DNA of 64,000 nucleotides from Candidatus Poribacteria bacterium (GCA_965198235.1 OZ240248.1:1792001-1856000); one strand, 5' to 3'. Positions 3,629 to 54,733 are shown, numbered from the stretch's first letter. A program made the numbers and translations. The notes: a model not told the origin generated them from the sequence alone.

Positions 3629-3830
3629 GTGGTTGTCAGCGATCAGCAGTCAGCAATCAGTTAATTCTTATGGCAGTTGCGTGTCCCTTGAATGTCGTAG
3701 AATTCTCATACTGAAAACTGAAAGGGTGCGCAGCACCCGTACTGACAACTGATGACTGTAAAACTGACAACTGAAAGGATTACGCAGTAATCCGTACTGA
3801 TAACTGACAACCAATAACTGACAACTGAAC
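3629..3830. repeat. Family A intergenic element: heptamer arms (TCAGCRR)n / (CTGAYRR)n with two nested GCA-triloop hairpins
   Basis: tcagcgatcagcagtcagcaatcag left arm; ctgacaa/ctgataa right arm; hairpins 3724-3738 and 3777-3793. Confidence 0.8.
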
Positions 3831-15094: not shown

Positions 15095-15182
15095 CGGTCA
15101 GCAGTCGGTTTCCGTCAGCAAAGAGTTTCTTGCTGATGGCTGAAAGGGTTGCGTAGCAACCCGTGCTGATGGCTGATGACTA
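15093..15182. repeat. Family A intergenic element with a nested GTA-triloop hairpin
   Basis: gcggtcagcagtcgg...tcagcaaagagtttcttgctgatggctgaaa-GGGTTGC-GTA-GCAACCC-gtgctga. Confidence 0.75.
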
Positions 15183-15901: not shown

Positions 15902-16016
15902 CAATCAGCGGTCAGGAAGAGACTGGAATGGAAAAGTGGAAGGATAGAAGAGTAGGTCCCACTCTTCCATCATTCCATTCAAGCACCGCCAGCCGACGGC
16001 TGATGGCTGAAAGCCA
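15899..16016. repeat. Family A element enclosing a GGAA/TTCC periodic palindrome
   Basis: gcaatcagcggtcag ... ggaatggaaaagtggaagg...cttccatcattccattc ... ccgacggctgatggctga. Confidence 0.65.
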
Positions 16017-16131
16017 TTAAAAGGTGAATAGTGTGAAGGAAGGTAAAAACAGAACCTTATTTGCAAAAGGTACGTGTAGAAACCGCGCCCGCGATGTGAT
16101 AGGGCAGTGGTTGGGTAGACATGTCCTGTTG

Positions 16132-19100
16132 ATGCTTGTCATCCTGACCTTGTTAGCACCTTGTATTGCGTGGTCGCAAAGTTTTGGGAAAAACAAGATT
16201 ACCGGACAACGCTTCGATTGGCACATTCACCGGACAGAGCATTTTGATATCCACTACTATCCAAGTGAAGCGAAACTCGTGCCTATTATGGCTGCTATTG
16301 CTGAGGAAGCTTACGAGAAGCACAGCGAAGATTTTGAGCATGAACTGCAAGACAGGACACCGCTCATCCTTTACAAATCCCACAAGGATTTTCAGGAAAC
16401 CAACATAATTCTCCAAGAACTTCACGAAGGCATTGGAGGTTTCGCGGAACTCTTTAAGCACCGTATCGTTATACCGTTTACCGGGTCCCTGGAAGCGTTT
16501 CGAGAGGTAATTTTTCACGAACTCATTCATATTTTCCAATACGATATTATCTATCAGAAACCGCATGCCCGCATTTATAGCGGTGAGTTCTTGTATTCCC
16601 CGCCAATCTGGTTTATAGAGGGAATGGCGGACTATTTTGCAGAAGACAATGATGCGATTGGAGAAATGGTAGTCCGAGATGCCAGCATAACTAACAATGT
16701 TGTGCCCCTACCGCAACTTCACAATTTCAACCGACTCAGCTCACCCTTCGTTGGGTATAAGTTAGGGCAATTAGCGGTGGCGTATCTCACAGAAACTTAT
16801 GGACGAGAGAAAATCGCTGAGATTTTGCAGGGGTTACGACAAAGCCGCACAAAGGACATTGACCGTGTTTTCAAAGAAGTGCTTGGGGTAGAACTCAAAG
16901 AATTTGATAAGGCATGGCGACAGACAGTCCGAAGACGCTACTGGCCCCTCATTGAGGACAGGGAATTGCCGGATCTGGTTGCAAAGAACCTTACCGAGGA
17001 ATCTCGATACTCGCATAACATTAAACCTGTCTGGTCTCCAAGCGGCGATATTATCGCTTACGTCACAGGAAATGAGGGGTTTCTGGAAATCGTCCTCATG
17101 TCCGCAAAAACGGGTGAACGCATCGAGCGGGTCACCAAGCGGTTTTTCCGTGAGAAATACGAGGAGATCCGGACCGATTTCGGTGGATTTGGTAGAAGCC
17201 TGACGTGGGCACCCGATGGTGACAGGATAGCATTCATCGCTAAACATCACGATGCGAATTATCTCCTTGAAGTCAATATTTTGACTGCGGAACTAACGCA
17301 GTACTTCGAGTTGGATTTTGATAACGTCACTTCACCGGACTACGATGGCAGCGGTGAACGGATAGTCTTTTCTGCGCTAAGAGAAGGGCAGACAGATCTC
17401 TATGTAATCGAATTGCTGACGGGTGAAGTGGACAGGTTCACCTTCGATCCATTTAACGATACGCATCCATCATGGCATCCCATAACTGGCGAAATCCTCT
17501 ACACCTCCGAGCGAGGAGCCAAAAATAGACTGGTACTGATAAACCTCAACCAAGGCACGGAACGCTTGCTGACCGATGGCACCTATAACGCTATCAGTCC
17601 AAGCTGGACACCAGATGGAAAATCAATCCTCTTCTGTTCGGATCGGCAGGGCATCTACGATATACACAAGCTTGAAATCGTGGAGAAGGACAGCCATCAG
17701 CGGAGTAGCGATCAGCCATCAGCCATCAGCAGTCAGCAGAATAGCAGTCAGCAGTCAGCAATCAGCCATCGGCAAGAGGGTGTCACTTCACCAGAAAACC
17801 TCTTAACCGATAGCCAACACGCCGACAGCCGCGCCAACGAAAAAGTCGTCTCGACTGGAAGTGGTAGCACGGAACCTGTGGGTTCTCGATCTGTAGAGGT
17901 TGAGTTGACGCGCCTTACCAATATGATGACAGGTTGTTTCAATCCGAGCTTGGCTCCGGACGGCAAACACCTGCTGTTTAGTGCCTACCAGAATGGAAAA
18001 TACGATGTCTGTATCATGGAGACTGCCAAAACGATTGAGGAAAAAATTGAGGTTTCAAGCGTGGCAGAACCCTTTGTAATTTTAACGGAGGAAGAACAAG
18101 AAAATTATAGGGTCGCCAAGCGAAAATACAGCACAAAATCCTCTTTTGCTTTAGATGCTATCTTCCCGGATTTTAGTTTCGGCGCGGATGGTATCCTGAG
18201 AAGTACGGTGCAAATCGTCGGCAGTGACATGTTAGGTAACCATCGTATCGGGGTTAGCGTGATGAACCAATCCAGCTACCTTACACCGGATTTTATCGCA
18301 CAATACGGTTTTTTGACACACCGAACTGATATTGGGGCAATGATTTACAACTATCATGAATACCATATTTTGGGTGGTATACAGAGAAGGCGGGGCATTC
18401 TACAACGGATTACCGGGCTTGGCGCGTATGTCAATTACCCATTTGACAGATACCATCGACTTGACTTTGAGTTCTCAATGTACTCGAAGCCGTTTTCCTT
18501 TAACTTCCAAACGCGCCAGCCTTTGGATCCATACGACGATAGAGGCTTGCTCACGATGGGTTCCATTGCGTTTGTTGGGGATACAACGATGTGGCGGGAG
18601 TGGGCACCTTATACAGGTTCGCGGTACCGCGTTGAACTTGAGCAATCCTTCCCGGCACTTGGTAGTGAATTGTCGCTAACAAATGTTATTTTTGATGCGC
18701 GACGCTATTTTGGTTTTGGCAGACGCTCTACCCTCGCAGCACGATTATTGCTCGGCGGTAGTTTCGGTGGTGATAGATCCTATTTTTATCTCGGTGGGAT
18801 TGATACACTACGCGGCTATAATTATGAAGAGTTGGTCGGGACACGCATCGGACTTCTCAACTTCGAGCTCCGTATTCCCTTCATAGATGTGCTTCACTTC
18901 GGGTGGCCCATCCAGTGGACGATCGGTGGGATACGCGGAATTGCCTTCGCAGATTTAGGAGGTGCCTGGTCGGATTGGCAATATGGACCGAAGAATCCTT
19001 TCAGGATATTTGTTCGCGATAAAAACCGTATTCGCCTTGACGATGTCAAGGCTGCAATCGGTGCTGGACTTCGTTTGCGACTCGGTGTGTTTTCTGTGGA

Positions 19101-19182
19101 CTTCGCCGCAGCGTGGCATACGGATCTGACGAGCGTGGAACCCGGTATGAAATACCATCTCGGACTCGGACAAGCTTTCTAA
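16132..19182 (+). CDS. Omp85/BamA-TamA family outer-membrane protein with N-terminal HExxH metallopeptidase (MA clan) and TolB-like PD40 propeller
   Basis: 'HELIH', 'WFIEGMADY'; PD40 'PVWSPSG', 'PSWTPDGK', 'PSLAPDGK'; 'LRGY' and terminal 'LGQAF' of Omp85 barrels; start uncertain (ORF track 16024). Confidence 0.85.
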   Translation: MLVILTLLAPCIAWSQSFGKNKITGQRFDWHIHRTEHFDIHYYPSEAKLVPIMAAIAEEAYEKHSEDFEHELQDRTPLILYKSHKDFQETNIILQELHEGIGGFAELFKHRIVIPFTGSLEAFREVIFHELIHIFQYDIIYQKPHARIYSGEFLYSPPIWFIEGMADYFAEDNDAIGEMVVRDASITNNVVPLPQLHNFNRLSSPFVGYKLGQLAVAYLTETYGREKIAEILQGLRQSRTKDIDRVFKEVLGVELKEFDKAWRQTVRRRYWPLIEDRELPDLVAKNLTEESRYSHNIKPVWSPSGDIIAYVTGNEGFLEIVLMSAKTGERIERVTKRFFREKYEEIRTDFGGFGRSLTWAPDGDRIAFIAKHHDANYLLEVNILTAELTQYFELDFDNVTSPDYDGSGERIVFSALREGQTDLYVIELLTGEVDRFTFDPFNDTHPSWHPITGEILYTSERGAKNRLVLINLNQGTERLLTDGTYNAISPSWTPDGKSILFCSDRQGIYDIHKLEIVEKDSHQRSSDQPSAISSQQNSSQQSAISHRQEGVTSPENLLTDSQHADSRANEKVVSTGSGSTEPVGSRSVEVELTRLTNMMTGCFNPSLAPDGKHLLFSAYQNGKYDVCIMETAKTIEEKIEVSSVAEPFVILTEEEQENYRVAKRKYSTKSSFALDAIFPDFSFGADGILRSTVQIVGSDMLGNHRIGVSVMNQSSYLTPDFIAQYGFLTHRTDIGAMIYNYHEYHILGGIQRRRGILQRITGLGAYVNYPFDRYHRLDFEFSMYSKPFSFNFQTRQPLDPYDDRGLLTMGSIAFVGDTTMWREWAPYTGSRYRVELEQSFPALGSELSLTNVIFDARRYFGFGRRSTLAARLLLGGSFGGDRSYFYLGGIDTLRGYNYEELVGTRIGLLNFELRIPFIDVLHFGWPIQWTIGGIRGIAFADLGGAWSDWQYGPKNPFRIFVRDKNRIRLDDVKAAIGAGLRLRLGVFSVDFAAAWHTDLTSVEPGMKYHLGLGQAF
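17691..17832. repeat. Family A element inserted in frame inside the Omp85/peptidase gene
   Basis: cagccatcagcagtcagcag...caagagggt....ttcaccagaaaacctctt...ccgatagcc...ccgacagcc matches the intergenic copy 22758-22866. Confidence 0.85.
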
Positions 19183-19540
19183 GTTATTAAAACCTGGGCA
19201 TCGTTCCACTGCGTTTCACGATGGTGTCTGGTGAATTCTGATGTGACTGGGGAGATGTACGGTTTCTAAGAGGGTGGGAGAACCCAAAACCTGCCCTACA
19301 ACAAAGTAGGCACAAGACCTACCTCTACAACCGCTTATAATTCAGAGGCGGTTAGACTTAACCGAAAACCACCGCGAAACGAAATTATGCCTTAAATGGC
19401 ATAATTTGTCTTTGCTTTACATTTGGAGCGGTTTAACCATCAACTCGACTCCGTTATAAATGTTAAAGCACGAGTGTTTTTGCTTGGGGTGTTTTTGCTT
19501 GGGTATTTCTGCGTATTGCTTGGGTGTTTCTGCGGATTTC
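19180..19540. repeat. Composite intergenic repeat cluster: Family B (19180-19226 minus; 19369-19430 plus) and GAAACACCCAAGCAA-type units (19474-19540 minus)
   Basis: aaattatgccttaaatggcataatttgtctttgctttacatttggagc shared with 30132-30213, 33716-33809, 59628-59718; cttgggtgtttc shared with 24302 and 32433. Confidence 0.8.
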
Positions 19541-19586
19541 TTCGATGGTTAACAGATTTAATCGTTTAAAAAGGATAGTTAAAAAT

Positions 19587-22500
19587 ATGGATTCACGAAC
19601 CAAACGCTTTGTTATCACTGTTGTCATACTTGCGGTTGTTGGAGGGCTGGGTGCAATCTGGGTTAACCTTTATCCCGACTTCCTATGGTTTAAGGTAGTG
19701 GACTATTTCAGCGTTTACACTAAAATTCTCACAACAAAAATACTCGTCGGTGCAATTGTTGGCGTTTGTTATTTGGCGATCCTTCTAACGAACCTTGCCC
19801 TAATCTATCGATTCACACCCGCGCATCTCAGTCCGGCTTTTATGGGGGGGGCGGATTTCATGGGTGGTGACGCAAACAACCCCGGTGATACGCGAAAACT
19901 AATTTACGGTGGACTCACACTTCTTGCGGTTCTTTTTAGTGTCATGATGGGTTACGCAGCCAGCGATCGGTGGGAGGTCTATCTACGCTACGTCAATGCT
20001 GAGAACCTCGCTTTCCGTGCCGCTGCCCCCATTATTGTAGAAGAAAGCCTCAATTCTGCCGAAATTCCTGTCTCGCAACTGGAACTCCAAGCGAAAAACA
20101 TAAGAGTCGGGGATCAGATAAGCGTCCGAGTAAATGGGGCAGATCAGGACGCGCGGGTTGAAGCTATTTTGGATAACGCCATCCGTTTGAATACGCCTGT
20201 TCAGATAGAACTGGGACAGAAAGCGTTCTTCACGTCTCCTGCACGCGATCCTATCTTTGATAAGGATGTCGCCTACTACGTTTTCAGGATGCCAGCGGAG
20301 CGTTATGTTTGTGGGACGCTTTTCGGTATCTTTATGTTAGTGACGATATTTGCAATCGTCATCTACTTTTTTCACGGGCTAATCACGGGAGATACCAACC
20401 AGTTTCGGTTCCGTCCACCTTTCAACGTGAAAGCACATTTGTTCACTCTTGTAGGTTTGACACTCCTATTCCGAGCATGGAACTACCGCTTTGCTATGTT
20501 TGATCTGCTCTACACAACAAACGATGTTGTCCGTGGTGGTGGTGGATACGCCGCGATGAAGGCACGACTCCCTATTTTGTATTTCTTGATTGGACTTACA
20601 ATTCTGTGTGCCATCATTTTCATCATTAGTATTTTCTTGAGACGCAACACCCTCGCTTTTGGCGGACTTGCCGTATTCCTGATTGCTGGATTCCTCGGAC
20701 AAGTCTATCCTATCGCTATACAAAGATGGCAAGTTGAACCCAGAAAACAGGTTTTAGAAGCAGATTATATCAACTACAACATCAAAGCAACGCTCCAAGC
20801 ATACGGCTTGGCTGAGAACACTGTGACGGAAGAAGAATATCCGCTGATAGAACAACTCAGTTATGATGACATAAGAAGTCCCGAAAACGCTTCTGTTTTC
20901 AATAGCATTCGTCTCTGGGATTGGCGTCCCTTGCGTAGAACTTTCCGACAACTTCAGGAATTGCGGACACAATATGATTTCAGCGATGTTGATATTGATC
21001 GCTATGTCGTTGATGATGAGATTCGACAGGTAATGCTCTCTGGACGGGAACTCAATATCAACGAACTCCCTGTCGAAATCAGAAGCGACTGGTATAAGCA
21101 GACTTATACCTACACGCACGGCTACGGCGCAGTTGTTAGTCCCGTTAACGAAATTGATAACGGCAAACCTAACATGTACATTCAAGGATTGCCCCCGATT
21201 GACTATGACGAGCAGTGGCAACATCGGTTCAGCGAAACACCGGGACCCCGTATCTATTATGGTGAGCGCACAGATCGCTACGTTATCGTACATCCAGAAC
21301 GGAGCCAAGGACTTGAGTTTGACTATCCGCAGGAAGGGCAACAATACGCCGAGTATGCATATCAAGGAAAGGGCGGCGTGCAACTGAACTCTTTCTGGCG
21401 CAAAATGGTATATATGCTTAAGTTCGATAACGAAATTAACTTCGTGCTCCCTGGTGAAATTTCACCGGCAAGCCGTATTCTCTATGAACGAAACATCAAA
21501 AGACGGATCCAAAAAATCGCACCCTTCTTACGGTACGATGGGGACCCTTACATCATTCTCTATAATGGCAGATTGGTTTGGATGATTGATGCCTATACCA
21601 TCACACACCGATATCCTTATTCCGTTTCAATGCAGGAGTTCGTCAGCGAGAGAAGACGACAGATTGCAAATGCACAGCGAGATGGTGAACCGTGGGGAAA
21701 CTACATCCGAAATTCTGTTAAAGTCATCGTTGATGCTTACGATGGCACTGTCGATTTTTACGTTATGGAGCGGGAACAGGATCCAATCGCGGAATGTTAT
21801 CGAAGAATCTTCCCAAATCTTTTCAAGTCGTTTGAGGAGATGCCGGATGAACTCAAGGCGCATATCCGATACCCGACATCCATGTTCCTTATCCAAGCTC
21901 GCGTCTATCAGGATTATCACATGAAAGACCCAGTGACCTTTTACGCAGGGGAAGATAAATGGGAGATCGGCAAGGAACTTTATGACAATACGGATGCCCA
22001 AACACGGCAAACCGCTCCTCCGCAGCCAAGGAGTCCTTTCGCACCGCAGCAGGTCCCCCAAAGTTCCGGTGCAAATGGACAACCCGTTGAACCCTATTAT
22101 GTCATCATCAGACTACCGGGGCAGGAGCAATCGGAATTTATGTTGATGTTGCCGTTCACACCGCTCAACAAACCGAATCTTACTGCATGGCTCGCTGCCC
22201 GATGCGACTTGCCACAATATGGGCAGCTCCTTGTTTACCGATTCCCAAAAGGGAAACAGGTCGCAGGACCGATGCAGGTGGAGAACTTTATTAGCCAAGA
22301 ACCGGAGATTTCACAGCAGATTAGCCTCTGGAATACGCAAGGGTCCCGCGTCTTACGCGGAAATCTGTTGATTCTGCCCATGAACAACTCGCTACTCTAT
22401 GTTGAGCCTATCTATATACAATCCGAAGATGAAAAAACCGCCATTCCCGAATTACGGCGGGTCGTTATCGGATATGGGAACGAAGTCGTATGGGGTGAAA

Positions 22501-22760
22501 GTCTTGAGGAAGCACTCGTCAATATGTTCGGACAGGGAACAGGGGTCCAGACCACCACTGCGACAATGACAACTGACGACATCGGCGCGGCTGATATCGG
22601 GGATATTCAGACCTCGTTGCAAGGGCGCATTGAACAAGCAAACCGTTATTTCAATCTGGGACAGGAGGCACTACGTACGGGTGATTGGACAGAATATGGA
22701 CGGTATCAGCGACTTTTAGAGGAAACTTTACGTCAACTTGAAGGAAATATACGGGAATAG
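19587..22760 (+). CDS. UPF0182 family membrane protein
   Basis: 'DFLWF', 'DPIF.KDVAYYVF', 'IRLWDWRP', 'YTHGYG', 'NYIRNSVKVIVDAYDG', 'GPMQVE', 'LLYVEPIY'. Confidence 0.92.
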   Translation: MDSRTKRFVITVVILAVVGGLGAIWVNLYPDFLWFKVVDYFSVYTKILTTKILVGAIVGVCYLAILLTNLALIYRFTPAHLSPAFMGGADFMGGDANNPGDTRKLIYGGLTLLAVLFSVMMGYAASDRWEVYLRYVNAENLAFRAAAPIIVEESLNSAEIPVSQLELQAKNIRVGDQISVRVNGADQDARVEAILDNAIRLNTPVQIELGQKAFFTSPARDPIFDKDVAYYVFRMPAERYVCGTLFGIFMLVTIFAIVIYFFHGLITGDTNQFRFRPPFNVKAHLFTLVGLTLLFRAWNYRFAMFDLLYTTNDVVRGGGGYAAMKARLPILYFLIGLTILCAIIFIISIFLRRNTLAFGGLAVFLIAGFLGQVYPIAIQRWQVEPRKQVLEADYINYNIKATLQAYGLAENTVTEEEYPLIEQLSYDDIRSPENASVFNSIRLWDWRPLRRTFRQLQELRTQYDFSDVDIDRYVVDDEIRQVMLSGRELNINELPVEIRSDWYKQTYTYTHGYGAVVSPVNEIDNGKPNMYIQGLPPIDYDEQWQHRFSETPGPRIYYGERTDRYVIVHPERSQGLEFDYPQEGQQYAEYAYQGKGGVQLNSFWRKMVYMLKFDNEINFVLPGEISPASRILYERNIKRRIQKIAPFLRYDGDPYIILYNGRLVWMIDAYTITHRYPYSVSMQEFVSERRRQIANAQRDGEPWGNYIRNSVKVIVDAYDGTVDFYVMEREQDPIAECYRRIFPNLFKSFEEMPDELKAHIRYPTSMFLIQARVYQDYHMKDPVTFYAGEDKWEIGKELYDNTDAQTRQTAPPQPRSPFAPQQVPQSSGANGQPVEPYYVIIRLPGQEQSEFMLMLPFTPLNKPNLTAWLAARCDLPQYGQLLVYRFPKGKQVAGPMQVENFISQEPEISQQISLWNTQGSRVLRGNLLILPMNNSLLYVEPIYIQSEDEKTAIPELRRVVIGYGNEVVWGESLEEALVNMFGQGTGVQTTTATMTTDDIGAADIGDIQTSLQGRIEQANRYFNLGQEALRTGDWTEYGRYQRLLEETLRQLEGNIRE

Positions 22761-22866
22761 CCGTCAGCAATCAGCGGTCAGCAGTCAGCAAGAGGGTATA
22801 ATTTCACCAGAAACCTCTTTACTGATGGCTGATAGCCGTCAGCCGATGGCCATTCCCTGACTGCTA
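22758..22866. repeat. Family A intergenic element (full form with AAGAGGGT...CCTCTT core)
   Basis: ccgtcagcaatcagcggtcagcagtcagcaagagggt...cctctttactgatggctgatagccgtcagccgatggc. Confidence 0.8.
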
Positions 22867-22887
22867 CTAAAAAAGGAGGTGAAACAG

Positions 22888-23133
22888 ATGGCTCTTGATT
22901 GGAAACCACGGCACCGGGACATGATTATTGGGGATATCCCATGGTTAGCCAGAATTGGTGATAAAGCCAGTGCAAAACTGCAGGGTATCCTCGGTGAATA
23001 TATCTACCCGTGACCGCAGGATAAGCTGTTCCTGGAGGAACACGAGATAAGTGCTGAGGCGTTCACTGAGATGGTGAAAAATAACCCCTCAGACGAGGAA
23101 ATGATTACCGCTATGAAGAAATTGGATAGTTAG
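22888..23133 (+). CDS. Small DUF5069-like selenoprotein candidate, 81 aa, Sec at residue 42 (TGA 23011-23013); absent from the ORF track
   Basis: AAGGAGGT RBS 7 nt before ATG; MALDWKPRHRDMIIGDIPWLARIGDKASAKLQGILGEYIYP-U-PQDKLFLEEHEISAEAFTEMVKNNPSDEEMITAMKKLDS; TGA falls at the Cys of the family's GEY.YPCP.D motif; hairpin 23027-23042. Confidence 0.8.
23011..23043 (+). promoter_or_regulatory. Putative bacterial SECIS element
   Basis: TGTTCC-TGGA-GGAACA 6-bp stem with loop Gs 21-22 nt after the TGA. Confidence 0.6.
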
Positions 23134-23139
23134 CTTAAT

Positions 23140-23194
23140 AGCGGTCAGCCGTCAGCGATCAGCAAGAAAACCTCTTTGCTGACGGCTGACCGCC
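23140..23194. repeat. Family A short palindromic element
   Basis: gcggtcagccgtcagc...gctgacggctgaccgc perfect 16-bp arms. Confidence 0.8.
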
Positions 23195-23215
23195 ATTAAC
23201 ACGGAGATCTATTTT

Positions 23216-24283
23216 TTGGATTTAACAAAGTACCGGAACCAGATTAACGAGATTGACGACCAAATTTTAGTACTGCTACAGAAACGGGCTGAGATTTCCA
23301 AGCAGGTCGGTGCGGTGAAAGCAGAAACAGGCGTTGCAGAAGTCTATGTTCCGCACCGGCAGAAGCAGATTATTGAACGTTTGAAGGAACGAAATTACGG
23401 CAAGTTCCCTGAAGCCGCACTTGAGGCGATCTGGACCGAGATTTTATCTGCGTCCCGCTCCTTGCAGGATCCGGAGCGGGTAGCCTTCCTCGGGCCGGTT
23501 GGCAGTTTCGGGCACTTGGCGGCTCTATCTCATTTCGGTACGTCAACTGAGTTTATCCCTGTCCGCCCACAGATTGACATTTTTACTGAGGTTGAATCTG
23601 GTAGAGCGGACTACGGTGTGGTGGCTATTGAAAATTCAGCACAAGGTGCTGTTCGTGATGTTTTGGAACGTTTCCAACGTACGCCGTTGTGGATTTGTGC
23701 AGAGACATTCCAACCGATAAAACAGCACCTTTTATCAAAGTCACCGCTCGCGGAAATTCGGTGTGTTTACTCGCATCCGCAACCTTTCGCGCAATGTAAG
23801 ACATGGTTAAGGCGACATCTCAGTGGTGCTGAGCAGATCGAGGTCATCAGTACGTCTGAAGCGGCGGAACGCGCCGCACAAGAGTCATCAGCAGCTGCCA
23901 TTGCAAGTGAACTCGCAAGCGAAATTTATCAGGTTCCAATCGTCGCAAACGCCATTATGGATGACCCTGATAACACAACCCGCTTCTTTGTGATCGGAAA
24001 GCGCGTCCCAGAGCCAAGCGGGCACGATCGGACTTCGCTGTTTTTCGCAATTCCGGACAAGGTTGGGGCACTACACCAAGCCTTGGGTATTTTAGAGCAA
24101 GCGCAATTGAATCTGAGTTATTTAGAATCTTTGCCGTCGCGAGCCAAACCGTGGGAATATATCTTCTTTACTGAGATGGAGGGTCATATTGCCGATGAAC
24201 GCGTCATCGTGGCACTTGAGCAGCTTGAAGAATTGTGTCGGCACGTCAACGTTCTCGGATCCTATCCGCGCGGGTCTTTTTAA
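23216..24283 (+). CDS. pheA: Bifunctional chorismate mutase/prephenate dehydratase
   Basis: N-terminal CM helix; 'VAFLGPVGS', 'IENS', 'YSHPQPFAQC', 'NTTRF', ACT domain 'ESLPS', 'LGSYP'. Confidence 0.95.
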   Translation: MDLTKYRNQINEIDDQILVLLQKRAEISKQVGAVKAETGVAEVYVPHRQKQIIERLKERNYGKFPEAALEAIWTEILSASRSLQDPERVAFLGPVGSFGHLAALSHFGTSTEFIPVRPQIDIFTEVESGRADYGVVAIENSAQGAVRDVLERFQRTPLWICAETFQPIKQHLLSKSPLAEIRCVYSHPQPFAQCKTWLRRHLSGAEQIEVISTSEAAERAAQESSAAAIASELASEIYQVPIVANAIMDDPDNTTRFFVIGKRVPEPSGHDRTSLFFAIPDKVGALHQALGILEQAQLNLSYLESLPSRAKPWEYIFFTEMEGHIADERVIVALEQLEELCRHVNVLGSYPRGSF

Positions 24284-50699: not shown

Positions 50700-50800
50700 A
50701 ACTGCTGTCTACTGATACCCTTCTACTGTAGGAGGGATCTCCGAATCCCGGCGCTTTCTAATAACTGATAACTAACCACTGACTGCTGATTGCTGACAGC
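50700..50800. repeat. Family A right arm plus a GTAG-footed hairpin
   Basis: gtaggagggatctccgaatccc; ctgataactaaccactgactgctgattgctgacagc. Confidence 0.55.
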
Positions 50801-54545: not shown

Positions 54546-54733
54546 GGCTATCGGCGGGAATAGCGGCCAGCGGTCAGCAGTCAGCTGTCCGGAAAACAGC
54601 GGTCAGCAGCCAGCAAAATAACCATCAGCAGTCAGCAGTCGGCTTTCAGTGGGTGCCCCTTTGGTTTTCTGAAACTCTCAAACTAAACAGGGAACTGACG
54701 GTCTTTAGAAAAGCCTCTTTGCTGATGGCTATC
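54546..54733. repeat. Family A intergenic element
   Basis: cagcggtcagcagtcagc...catcagcagtcagcagtcggc...cctctttgctgatggct. Confidence 0.75.

Follow-up and report, generated by a model that had tools for sequence, protein, structure and literature searches.

A probable selenocysteine-containing short form of DUF5069 in Candidatus Poribacteria

The window analysed here is a 64,000-nucleotide stretch of DNA (GCA_965198235.1 OZ240248.1:1792001-1856000) from a sponge-associated Candidatus Poribacteria MAG (5.17 Mb in 2 contigs, 96.3% complete, 5.3% contamination). It contains a small plus-strand gene in which an in-frame TGA separates two halves of similar length (Table 1). A sequence-only reading had described a perfect ribosome-binding site, 41 codons leading to an in-frame TGA at 23011, and 39 more codons leading to a TAG at 23131. 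Each of these elements is present: AAGGAGGT lies at 22873-22880, and the frame opened by the ATG at 22888 runs through 41 sense codons, the TGA (23011-23013) and 39 further sense codons before it reaches the TAG (23131-23133). The gene was also said to be missing from the ORF track, and the table 11 listing around 22888-23133 indeed holds only a 44-aa ORF that begins with GTG, spans 22879-23013 and stops at the TGA. The first in-frame start codon beyond that TGA is Met62. With the TGA translated as U, the 81-residue product lacks cysteine, and U42 is its sole residue of the Cys/Sec type. A hairpin reported after the TGA, TGTTCC-TGGA-GGAACA, is found at 23027-23042, with 13 nt separating the TGA from the stem. 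Scanning 22600-23350 for promoters and terminators returned 0 promoter-like sites and 1 terminator-like site, the latter on the minus strand and at chance level.

Table 1. Features of the DUF5069 locus (positions counted from the first letter of the window).
Feature	Position	Strand	Remarks
Shine-Dalgarno AAGGAGGT	22873-22880	+	7 nt before ATG 22888; read from sequence
Short-form DUF5069 CDS, predicted selenoprotein, 81 residues	22888-23133	+	ATG 22888, Sec codon 42, TAG 23131-23133
In-frame TGA, probable Sec, residue 42, motif Y-P-[C/U]-P-x-D	23011-23013	+	
SECIS-like hairpin	23027-23042	+	within codons 47-52 (L-F-L-E-E-H)
Hairpin outer U-A pair	23027 with 23042	+	
Hairpin core stem GUUCC/GGAAC	23028-23032 paired with 23037-23041	+	RNAalifold picks helix
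Hairpin loop UGGA	23033-23036	+	starts 20 nt after UGA
pheA (chorismate mutase/prephenate dehydratase/ACT)	23216-24283	+	Pfam CM_2, PDT, ACT

The pheA gene comes next downstream, in the same orientation, in 75 of 80 close loci. At class level this holds for 9 of 10 loci, among them all 7 Cys-form loci tested; the tenth is a short stretch of 1,838 bases. Four Poribacteria-like loci from metagenomes are also followed by pheA. In a second Sec clade of metagenomic origin (L185-L200), pheA is not adjacent; there the gene stands alone between oppositely oriented genes, flanked by SBP_bac_5 or an RsmD-like methyltransferase and by a response-regulator/HDOD gene. Because the adjacency is absent from this clade, we claim no functional link to PheA and regard pheA as a neighbour specific to certain lineages rather than as a partner. 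Upstream, the window encodes a 1052-aa protein with Peptidase_MA_2, PD40 and Omp85 domains (16024-19182) and a 1078-aa UPF0182 membrane protein (19524-22760); UPF0182 is upstream in 79 of 80 close loci.

The gene is bordered on both sides by (A/G)TCAGCN heptad repeats that form inverted-repeat hairpins (22760-22850 and 23140-23195). Further heptad sites occur at 3636-3654, 15132-15176, 15999-16010, 17712-17766, 50785-50796 and 54574-54636, and the cluster at 17712-17766 lies inside the ORF at 16024-19182. The pattern TCAGCNRTCAGC is found 19 times in the window against 0.05 expected, and contigs assembled from RNA libraries break repeatedly at these repeats, which look like a REP-like dispersed intergenic element.

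In public databases the locus is recorded incorrectly. NCBI, JGI and ENA records give a 41-aa product on up to 118 contigs, called "hypothetical protein" in one of them, and six full-length ENA proteins as well as P0014 carry W at the Sec site. The wrong forms, either full-length with Trp or reduced to a 41-aa fragment, comprise P0002-P0007, P0014 and P0142-P0146. The W-containing proteins come from short contigs, and P0007 in addition overshoots its true TGA stop and continues into unrelated residues. The W at this site is best explained as an artefact of gene calling under code 4 on short contigs.

Contigs assembled from four metatranscriptomic runs of one sponge study bridge the TGA, though DNA carry-over into these libraries is possible. 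Record 3 of run X1 spans 22887-23150 with 0 differences and record 29 of X4 spans 22887-23149 with 8 differences; record 13 of X2 and record 21 of X3 each span 22887-23056. No variant letter is listed at 23011-23013 in the 4 RNA-library runs. These contigs show neither strand nor level: their depth is higher over the gene than over its neighbours, a quantity by which genes cannot be ranked.

The read-through protein belongs to DUF5069, as had been proposed. It matches the Pfam family (PF16798) with an E value of 4.9e-13 and 49.8 bits, above the gathering cut-off of 27, and the match covers residues 7-77, thus spanning both sides of the TGA. A six-frame search of the genome with DUF5069 gave 44.3 bits with one TGA inside the match, and NCBIfam release 20.0 returned 0 families at E <= 1. 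The match takes in positions 4-74 of the 133 in the PF16798 profile, short of the full domain; the protein stops at residue 81. This short form, equivalent to the N-terminal half of DUF5069, is common to many Cys-containing representatives of 77-124 aa. To our knowledge, no function is known for the family.

A search of 1.84 billion cluster representatives yielded 132 proteins. Four that were already in the set (three fragments ending in "...YIYP" and one of 46 aa) were omitted, leaving 128. An alignment of 120 sequences has the consensus PR..LGG..WL.R..DKARA..AGT.GEY.YPCP.D, in agreement with the family motif that the sequence-only reading had given. Within it, R22, D25, K26, G33, C42 and D45 are at least 90% conserved, and our protein keeps them all, with Sec predicted at 42. 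The reading had put the TGA exactly on the family Cys, and this is where it falls: among the 118 non-query representatives that cover the site, the residue is Cys in 102, Ser in 10, and W, P, T, H, A and N in one each, the W being that of P0014. The other 10 of the 128 stop short of the site, 8 of them exactly one residue before it, as expected of gene calls truncated by a TGA.

A profile built from orthologs (n = 22) retrieved one solved structure, 3omd_A (E 1.2e-15), whose Cys is aligned opposite Sec42 in the pairwise alignment. This "uncharacterized protein" from Leptospirillum rubarum provides a crystal structure of DUF5069 that has been available since 2010; a search for literature on 3omd found only unrelated abbreviations. 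An AF2 model based on the 120-sequence alignment (mean pLDDT 84.9) has helices at 20-32, 43-51, 56-65 and 69-80 and places residue 42 immediately before the helix at 43-51. Foldseek superimposed the model on 3omd_A with a query-normalised TM of 0.85 and an rmsd of 1.0 A over 73 columns at 37% identity, so that fold and motif are common to the two proteins over the first ~75 residues. No other PDB entry matched at E <= 0.001, and this comparison offered no functional lead. For a natural Cys ortholog, the ESM Atlas held no usable named cluster. While 3omd and other PF16798 proteins have Cys, the short Poribacteria protein would have Sec and is without the C-terminal half of the domain.

Other members of the family are also encoded in these genomes. 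The genome that holds the window encodes a 427-aa protein built of three DUF5069 domains in tandem (G000:C1:834782-836029; locus L025 1483-2766), which is without the family Cys and carries a G-E/D-S/D-S-G stretch instead. Proteins of 428-450 aa akin to it occur in most relatives, and it would be a Cys-less branch of DUF5069. Single-domain paralogs of 139 aa in family f4 keep the Cys.

The in-frame TGA is conserved across the phylum. In the same order, 60 of 61 genomes contain an ortholog with exactly one TGA, at 99-62% identity; the one exception, G005, is 81% complete. The TGA is codon 42 in 50 of 50 extracted ortholog loci, and both halves of the protein are conserved. A scan of the phylum matched 169 of 176 Poribacteria genomes at E <= 1e-6, and all 150 among the matches listed carry a single TGA. 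Once the remaining genomes had been checked, 168 of 176 had an ortholog, 160 of them with TGA and 8 with a Cys form, and 8 were without the short form. The last group consists of G005 and G152 (each 81% complete, with only paralog hits) and six genomes of families f5, f10 and f11.

The 8 Cys forms are those of the sister family f8, in which all 8 genomes have TGC or TGT at the Sec codon and each ortholog is one ORF of 84-86 aa without interruption. Metagenomes, scanned with P0014 as the seed, added 40 loci, of which 21 have TGA, 11 TGC and 8 TGT; since the peptide patterns of the scan contained parts of the motif, this is a biased sample. One clade among these loci, L185-L200, is ~70-100% identical to P0014 and combines the TGA with the same hairpin core. 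The alternation of TGA and TGY that the sequence-only reading had named as a check is therefore present, both in Poribacteria (160 genomes with TGA against 8 of 8 f8 genomes with TGC/TGT) and in metagenomes (21 against 19). That reading would have been undermined by homologues with Trp, Arg or a stop, or by a TGA confined to one genome; the homologues carry Cys, and we counted 134 distinct TGA loci.

Some orthologs (L057-L064 of family f2, and L070) themselves terminate in TGA, which implies that TGA is an ordinary stop in these organisms. The f2 orthologs L057-L064, together with L073, have an extra C-terminal tail of 12-17 residues rich in Lys, Ser and Arg; judging by its composition, this basic tail may bind a polyanion such as nucleic acid.

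The sequence beyond the TGA evolves like coding sequence. On either side of the TGA, variation falls mostly at third positions of one and the same frame: the minor-base shares at the three codon positions are 0.09/0.07/0.33 upstream of the TGA and 0.10/0.06/0.27 downstream. Averaged over sequence pairs, pN/pS comes to 0.150 in codons 2-41 and to 0.223 in codons 43-80. A downstream half without conservation would have counted against the sequence-only reading, and a pN/pS of 0.22 is not what such a half would give. From this pattern of substitution, the downstream half clearly appears to be translated in frame.

The genome also encodes a complete apparatus for decoding UGA as Sec. We found selA (592 bits), selB (348 bits), selD (360 bits) and, adjoining selB, tRNA-Sec (78 bits), all with scores exceeding their cut-offs. 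The selD gene (G000:C1:3115227-3116150, minus strand; locus L012) has an in-frame TGA of its own within a C-A-G-U-A-S motif. It is followed by a hairpin, GCUC-CGGGU-GAGC, whose loop begins 17 nt past the selD UGA; this hairpin was read directly off the sequence, and an MFE fold of the segment gave another structure.

Bacterial SECIS elements of the fdhF/selD type are hairpins directly 3' of the UGA, with a G in the apical loop and the loop roughly 16-37 nt downstream. The hairpin in the DUF5069 gene likewise lies inside the coding sequence, with GG in its loop and the loop starting 20 nt past the UGA (23 nt where an ortholog has one codon inserted). It also resembles the hairpin of the genome's own selD, which is short, has a G in the loop and places that loop 17 nt past its UGA. 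Unlike fdhF/selD-type elements, it is very small, with 5 invariant pairs and a 4-nt loop, and it is nearly identical in sequence over the whole phylum and in a second metagenomic clade. Small size and near-identity together suggest that the hairpin is in effect a fixed 14-nt signature, one that holds four amino acids constant as well.

The constraint on these codons is severe. RNAalifold, given 47 sequences, selected exactly the 5-bp GUUCC/GGAAC helix. Codons 48-51 (TTC CTG GAG GAA) are identical in 199 of 200 cases, and pS is 0.017 there against ~0.66 across the remaining gene. Leu49 is encoded by CTG in 50 of 50 sequences, while the major codon accounts for a share of 0.49-0.66 at other invariant Leu columns. 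Fixation of the F-L-E-E peptide in all Sec forms would follow from the hairpin's position within codons 47-52; part of this conservation could reflect selection at the protein level.

The hairpin is tied to the TGA. Its exact 14-nt core, which is found once in the 5.17-Mb genome, is present in 126 of 134 distinct TGA loci and in 0 of 26 Cys loci, and a hairpin of some form accompanies all 134 TGA loci. The TGA loci that depart from the exact core have U-G wobbles (L056, L116, L125, L193), a G-U pair (L072), or a G-C stem pair changed to A-U with the helix kept (L083, L084); in L216 an entirely different 7-bp stem, with UGGAU as its loop, occupies this position. Where TGC or TGT replaces TGA, the exact core is absent. 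In the f8 Cys forms the hairpin codons drift, for example to TTT CTC GAA CGC or TGG CTT CAA AAA, while L167 and L198 retain part of the core. Under a permissive rule, 12 of the 26 Cys loci show some hairpin of at least 5 bp, some of them at the same position. At the SECIS position, four Cys forms in the clade around L216 (L211, L214, L219 and L223) carry hairpins of 6-8 bp whose loops read, for instance, UCGC or GGC; these hairpins may be SECIS precursors or relics.

Evidence for the hairpin comes from comparison. The core alone folds at -5.9 kcal/mol, and a single-sequence fold of 23005-23075 has no excess stability over shuffles (z = 0.05), so that the significance of the hairpin derives only from the comparative data. 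When 118 distinct TGA-form sequences are compared, pairing holds in 90.9% of cells, and the covariation score was reached by 0 of 500 shuffles. The signal was weak in the first 47 sequences and became clear only at 118. Pair 20-35 is UA in 80 sequences, AU in 15, GU in 2, GC in 1 and unpaired in 20; pair 21-34 is GC in 115, AU in 1 and GU in 1. Because the five core pairs are almost invariant, the covariation rests on two outer pairs and a handful of sequences. Slid registers score below the true one, with +2 coming close (0.084 versus 0.097). An Rfam scan of 22700-23300 returned only sub-threshold chance matches and no family.

We built a tree with the site itself masked. The 184 sequences collected were thinned at 90% identity within each state to 64, and the tree uses 76 columns. 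A good many of its forks are unresolved, and the bootstrap had not fully converged. At least 3 Sec/Cys changes are required by this tree. A clade of 46 rows (100/100 support) contains every form with the shared hairpin, the Cys forms of f8 and L198 are nested within it, and L216 (Sec) is sister to L213 (Cys) with 96/84. We infer from this topology a probable single gain of Sec together with the shared hairpin, at least 2 reversions to Cys, and a separate gain in L216. We considered whether f8 has Cys because the Sec trait was lost, and rejected this, since selB is present in 5 of 5 Cys-form f8 genomes tested.

Given these comparisons, we consider it very probable that 22888-23133(+) is a real, expressed-type gene in which UGA-42 is decoded as Sec. 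We weighed other ways of reading it. A near-cognate or suppressor tRNA (Trp, Cys or Arg) might read through the UGA, with the Sec machinery uninvolved and the hairpin merely slowing termination. Clear in-frame translation of the downstream half would be consistent with this; sequence alone cannot tell which residue is inserted, and the hairpin is small and unremarkable in a single-sequence fold. Against it, 102 of 118 representatives and every f8 ortholog have Cys at the site, as is classic for Sec/Cys pairs; the genome has the complete Sec machinery; and the hairpin, which is like that of the genome's own selD in its position and G-containing loop, is lost exactly where TGC or TGT replaces the TGA. 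We think this suppressor mechanism highly unlikely.

It is also very doubtful that the TGA is a true stop giving a 41-residue product, with the downstream sequence conserved for another reason, such as a peptide with a start of its own or an RNA element. The 41-aa calls in NCBI, JGI and ENA would fit such a stop, as would the other calls that end at the TGA, yet the TGA interrupts neither the Pfam match nor the 3omd alignment nor the predicted fold, the Cys orthologs are uninterrupted ORFs of 84-86 aa, and the downstream variation keeps to third positions of the same frame with a pN/pS of 0.22. A separate peptide would also find no in-frame start after the TGA until Met62. We see almost no chance that the gene is a pseudogene or an assembly error, or that TGA means Trp or Gly (code 4 or 25). 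Full-length ENA calls with W on short contigs are what a reassigned codon would produce, but L057-L064 and L070 use TGA as their terminator, P0007 overruns a true TGA stop, the neighbouring genes are intact under table 11, and the homologous column holds Cys, neither Trp nor Gly. Decay or misassembly is at odds with a TGA in 134 distinct loci from independent assemblies and with purifying selection on both sides of it.

If UGA-42 is decoded as Sec, the comparative evidence suggests how this would occur. The SelA, SelB, SelD and tRNA-Sec of the bacterium would insert Sec at UGA-42, with SelB recruited by a minimal in-frame SECIS consisting of the 5-bp GUUCC/GGAAC stem, the UGGA loop and 1-2 variable outer pairs. 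Sec would thereby take the place of the family's one nearly invariant cysteine (YPCPxD). Cells pay a high price for using Sec, which nearly always marks a catalytic residue. In DUF5069 it would mark a catalytic redox or metal site, as had been suggested from the sequence alone.

The combination of a near-invariant nucleophile, its place at the start of a helix and the lack of a second Cys leads us to propose that Sec42 is a single-selenol centre that would react with an external partner. Such a centre could join a thiol substrate or protein in a selenenyl-sulfide, or it could carry an S or Se atom. We judge the chances about even that Sec42 acts as a single-selenol centre of this kind, on an external thiol or in carrying a chalcogen atom. 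The predicted selenoprotein is without a UxxC or CxxU motif and without a second Cys, and a role as a CxxC-type dithiol oxidoreductase is unlikely. Sulfur carriers of the TusA/SirA type have a Cys-Pro-x-Pro motif at the start of a helix. Our protein resembles them by functional analogy, being small, with one reactive Cys or Sec followed by Pro at the N-terminus of a predicted helix, and one DUF5069 representative is fused to DUF2249. Unlike a true relative of TusA/SirA, it has no sequence or fold relationship to them that Pfam or Foldseek could find.

We also looked for a function among the fusion partners of longer DUF5069 proteins. Cupin_2 occurs in 3 proteins, and a methyltransferase domain, DUF2249, DLH, CO_deh_flav_C and an amino-acid-kinase fragment in one protein each. 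These partners are too diverse, and we rejected them as a guide; fused domains, neighbours and fold matches alike gave no function.

DUF5069 appears to be new as a selenoprotein family. The sequence-only reading did not know it as one, and this agrees with the searchable main texts of the literature, in which DUF5069 was found neither as the subject of any paper nor as a mention. A 2026 review tabulates 119 prokaryotic selenoprotein families with their domain IDs (PMC13188914); PF16798 and the strings YPU and PUP are absent from its main text, the part that the search covered. The nine new selenoprotein families reported with deep-Sep do not include DUF5069 as far as the main text goes (PMC12013277), and BSepDB builds on previously reported families, with no "DUF" term in the main-text passages searched (PMC13326102). 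By title or abstract, none of the papers found on Poribacteria and selenocysteine is about this gene.

Selenoproteins are recognised by a conserved in-frame TGA in Sec users, Cys homologues and a downstream SECIS-like hairpin (PMC12013277). The evidence for DUF5069 is of the same kind as that for the predicted single-Sec DUF selenoproteins DUF523, DUF1858, DUF3179, DUF166 and DUF1573 (PMC13188914, Table 1), and what we describe looks like a new selenoprotein family and a previously mis-annotated gene. We lean slightly towards the broader proposal that this is an unlisted selenoprotein family, found almost throughout Poribacteria and also in one or more further marine lineages, with a tiny fixed SECIS and with the YPCPxD Cys as the reactive centre of all DUF5069 proteins. 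That centre would be a lone selenol or thiol working on an external partner, in redox chemistry or in the transfer of sulfur or selenium.

The finding would correct the annotation of well over a hundred Poribacteria genomes, which record a 41-residue peptide or a Trp mis-translation, and would add a candidate family to the prokaryotic selenoproteome. The 14-nt signature, kept with TGA and decaying with TGC or TGT, would constitute a natural experiment and a probe for further copies. For a prominent phylum of sponge symbionts it would point to the use of selenium, and for DUF5069, Sec at the single conserved Cys would be the first functional handle on a widespread family.
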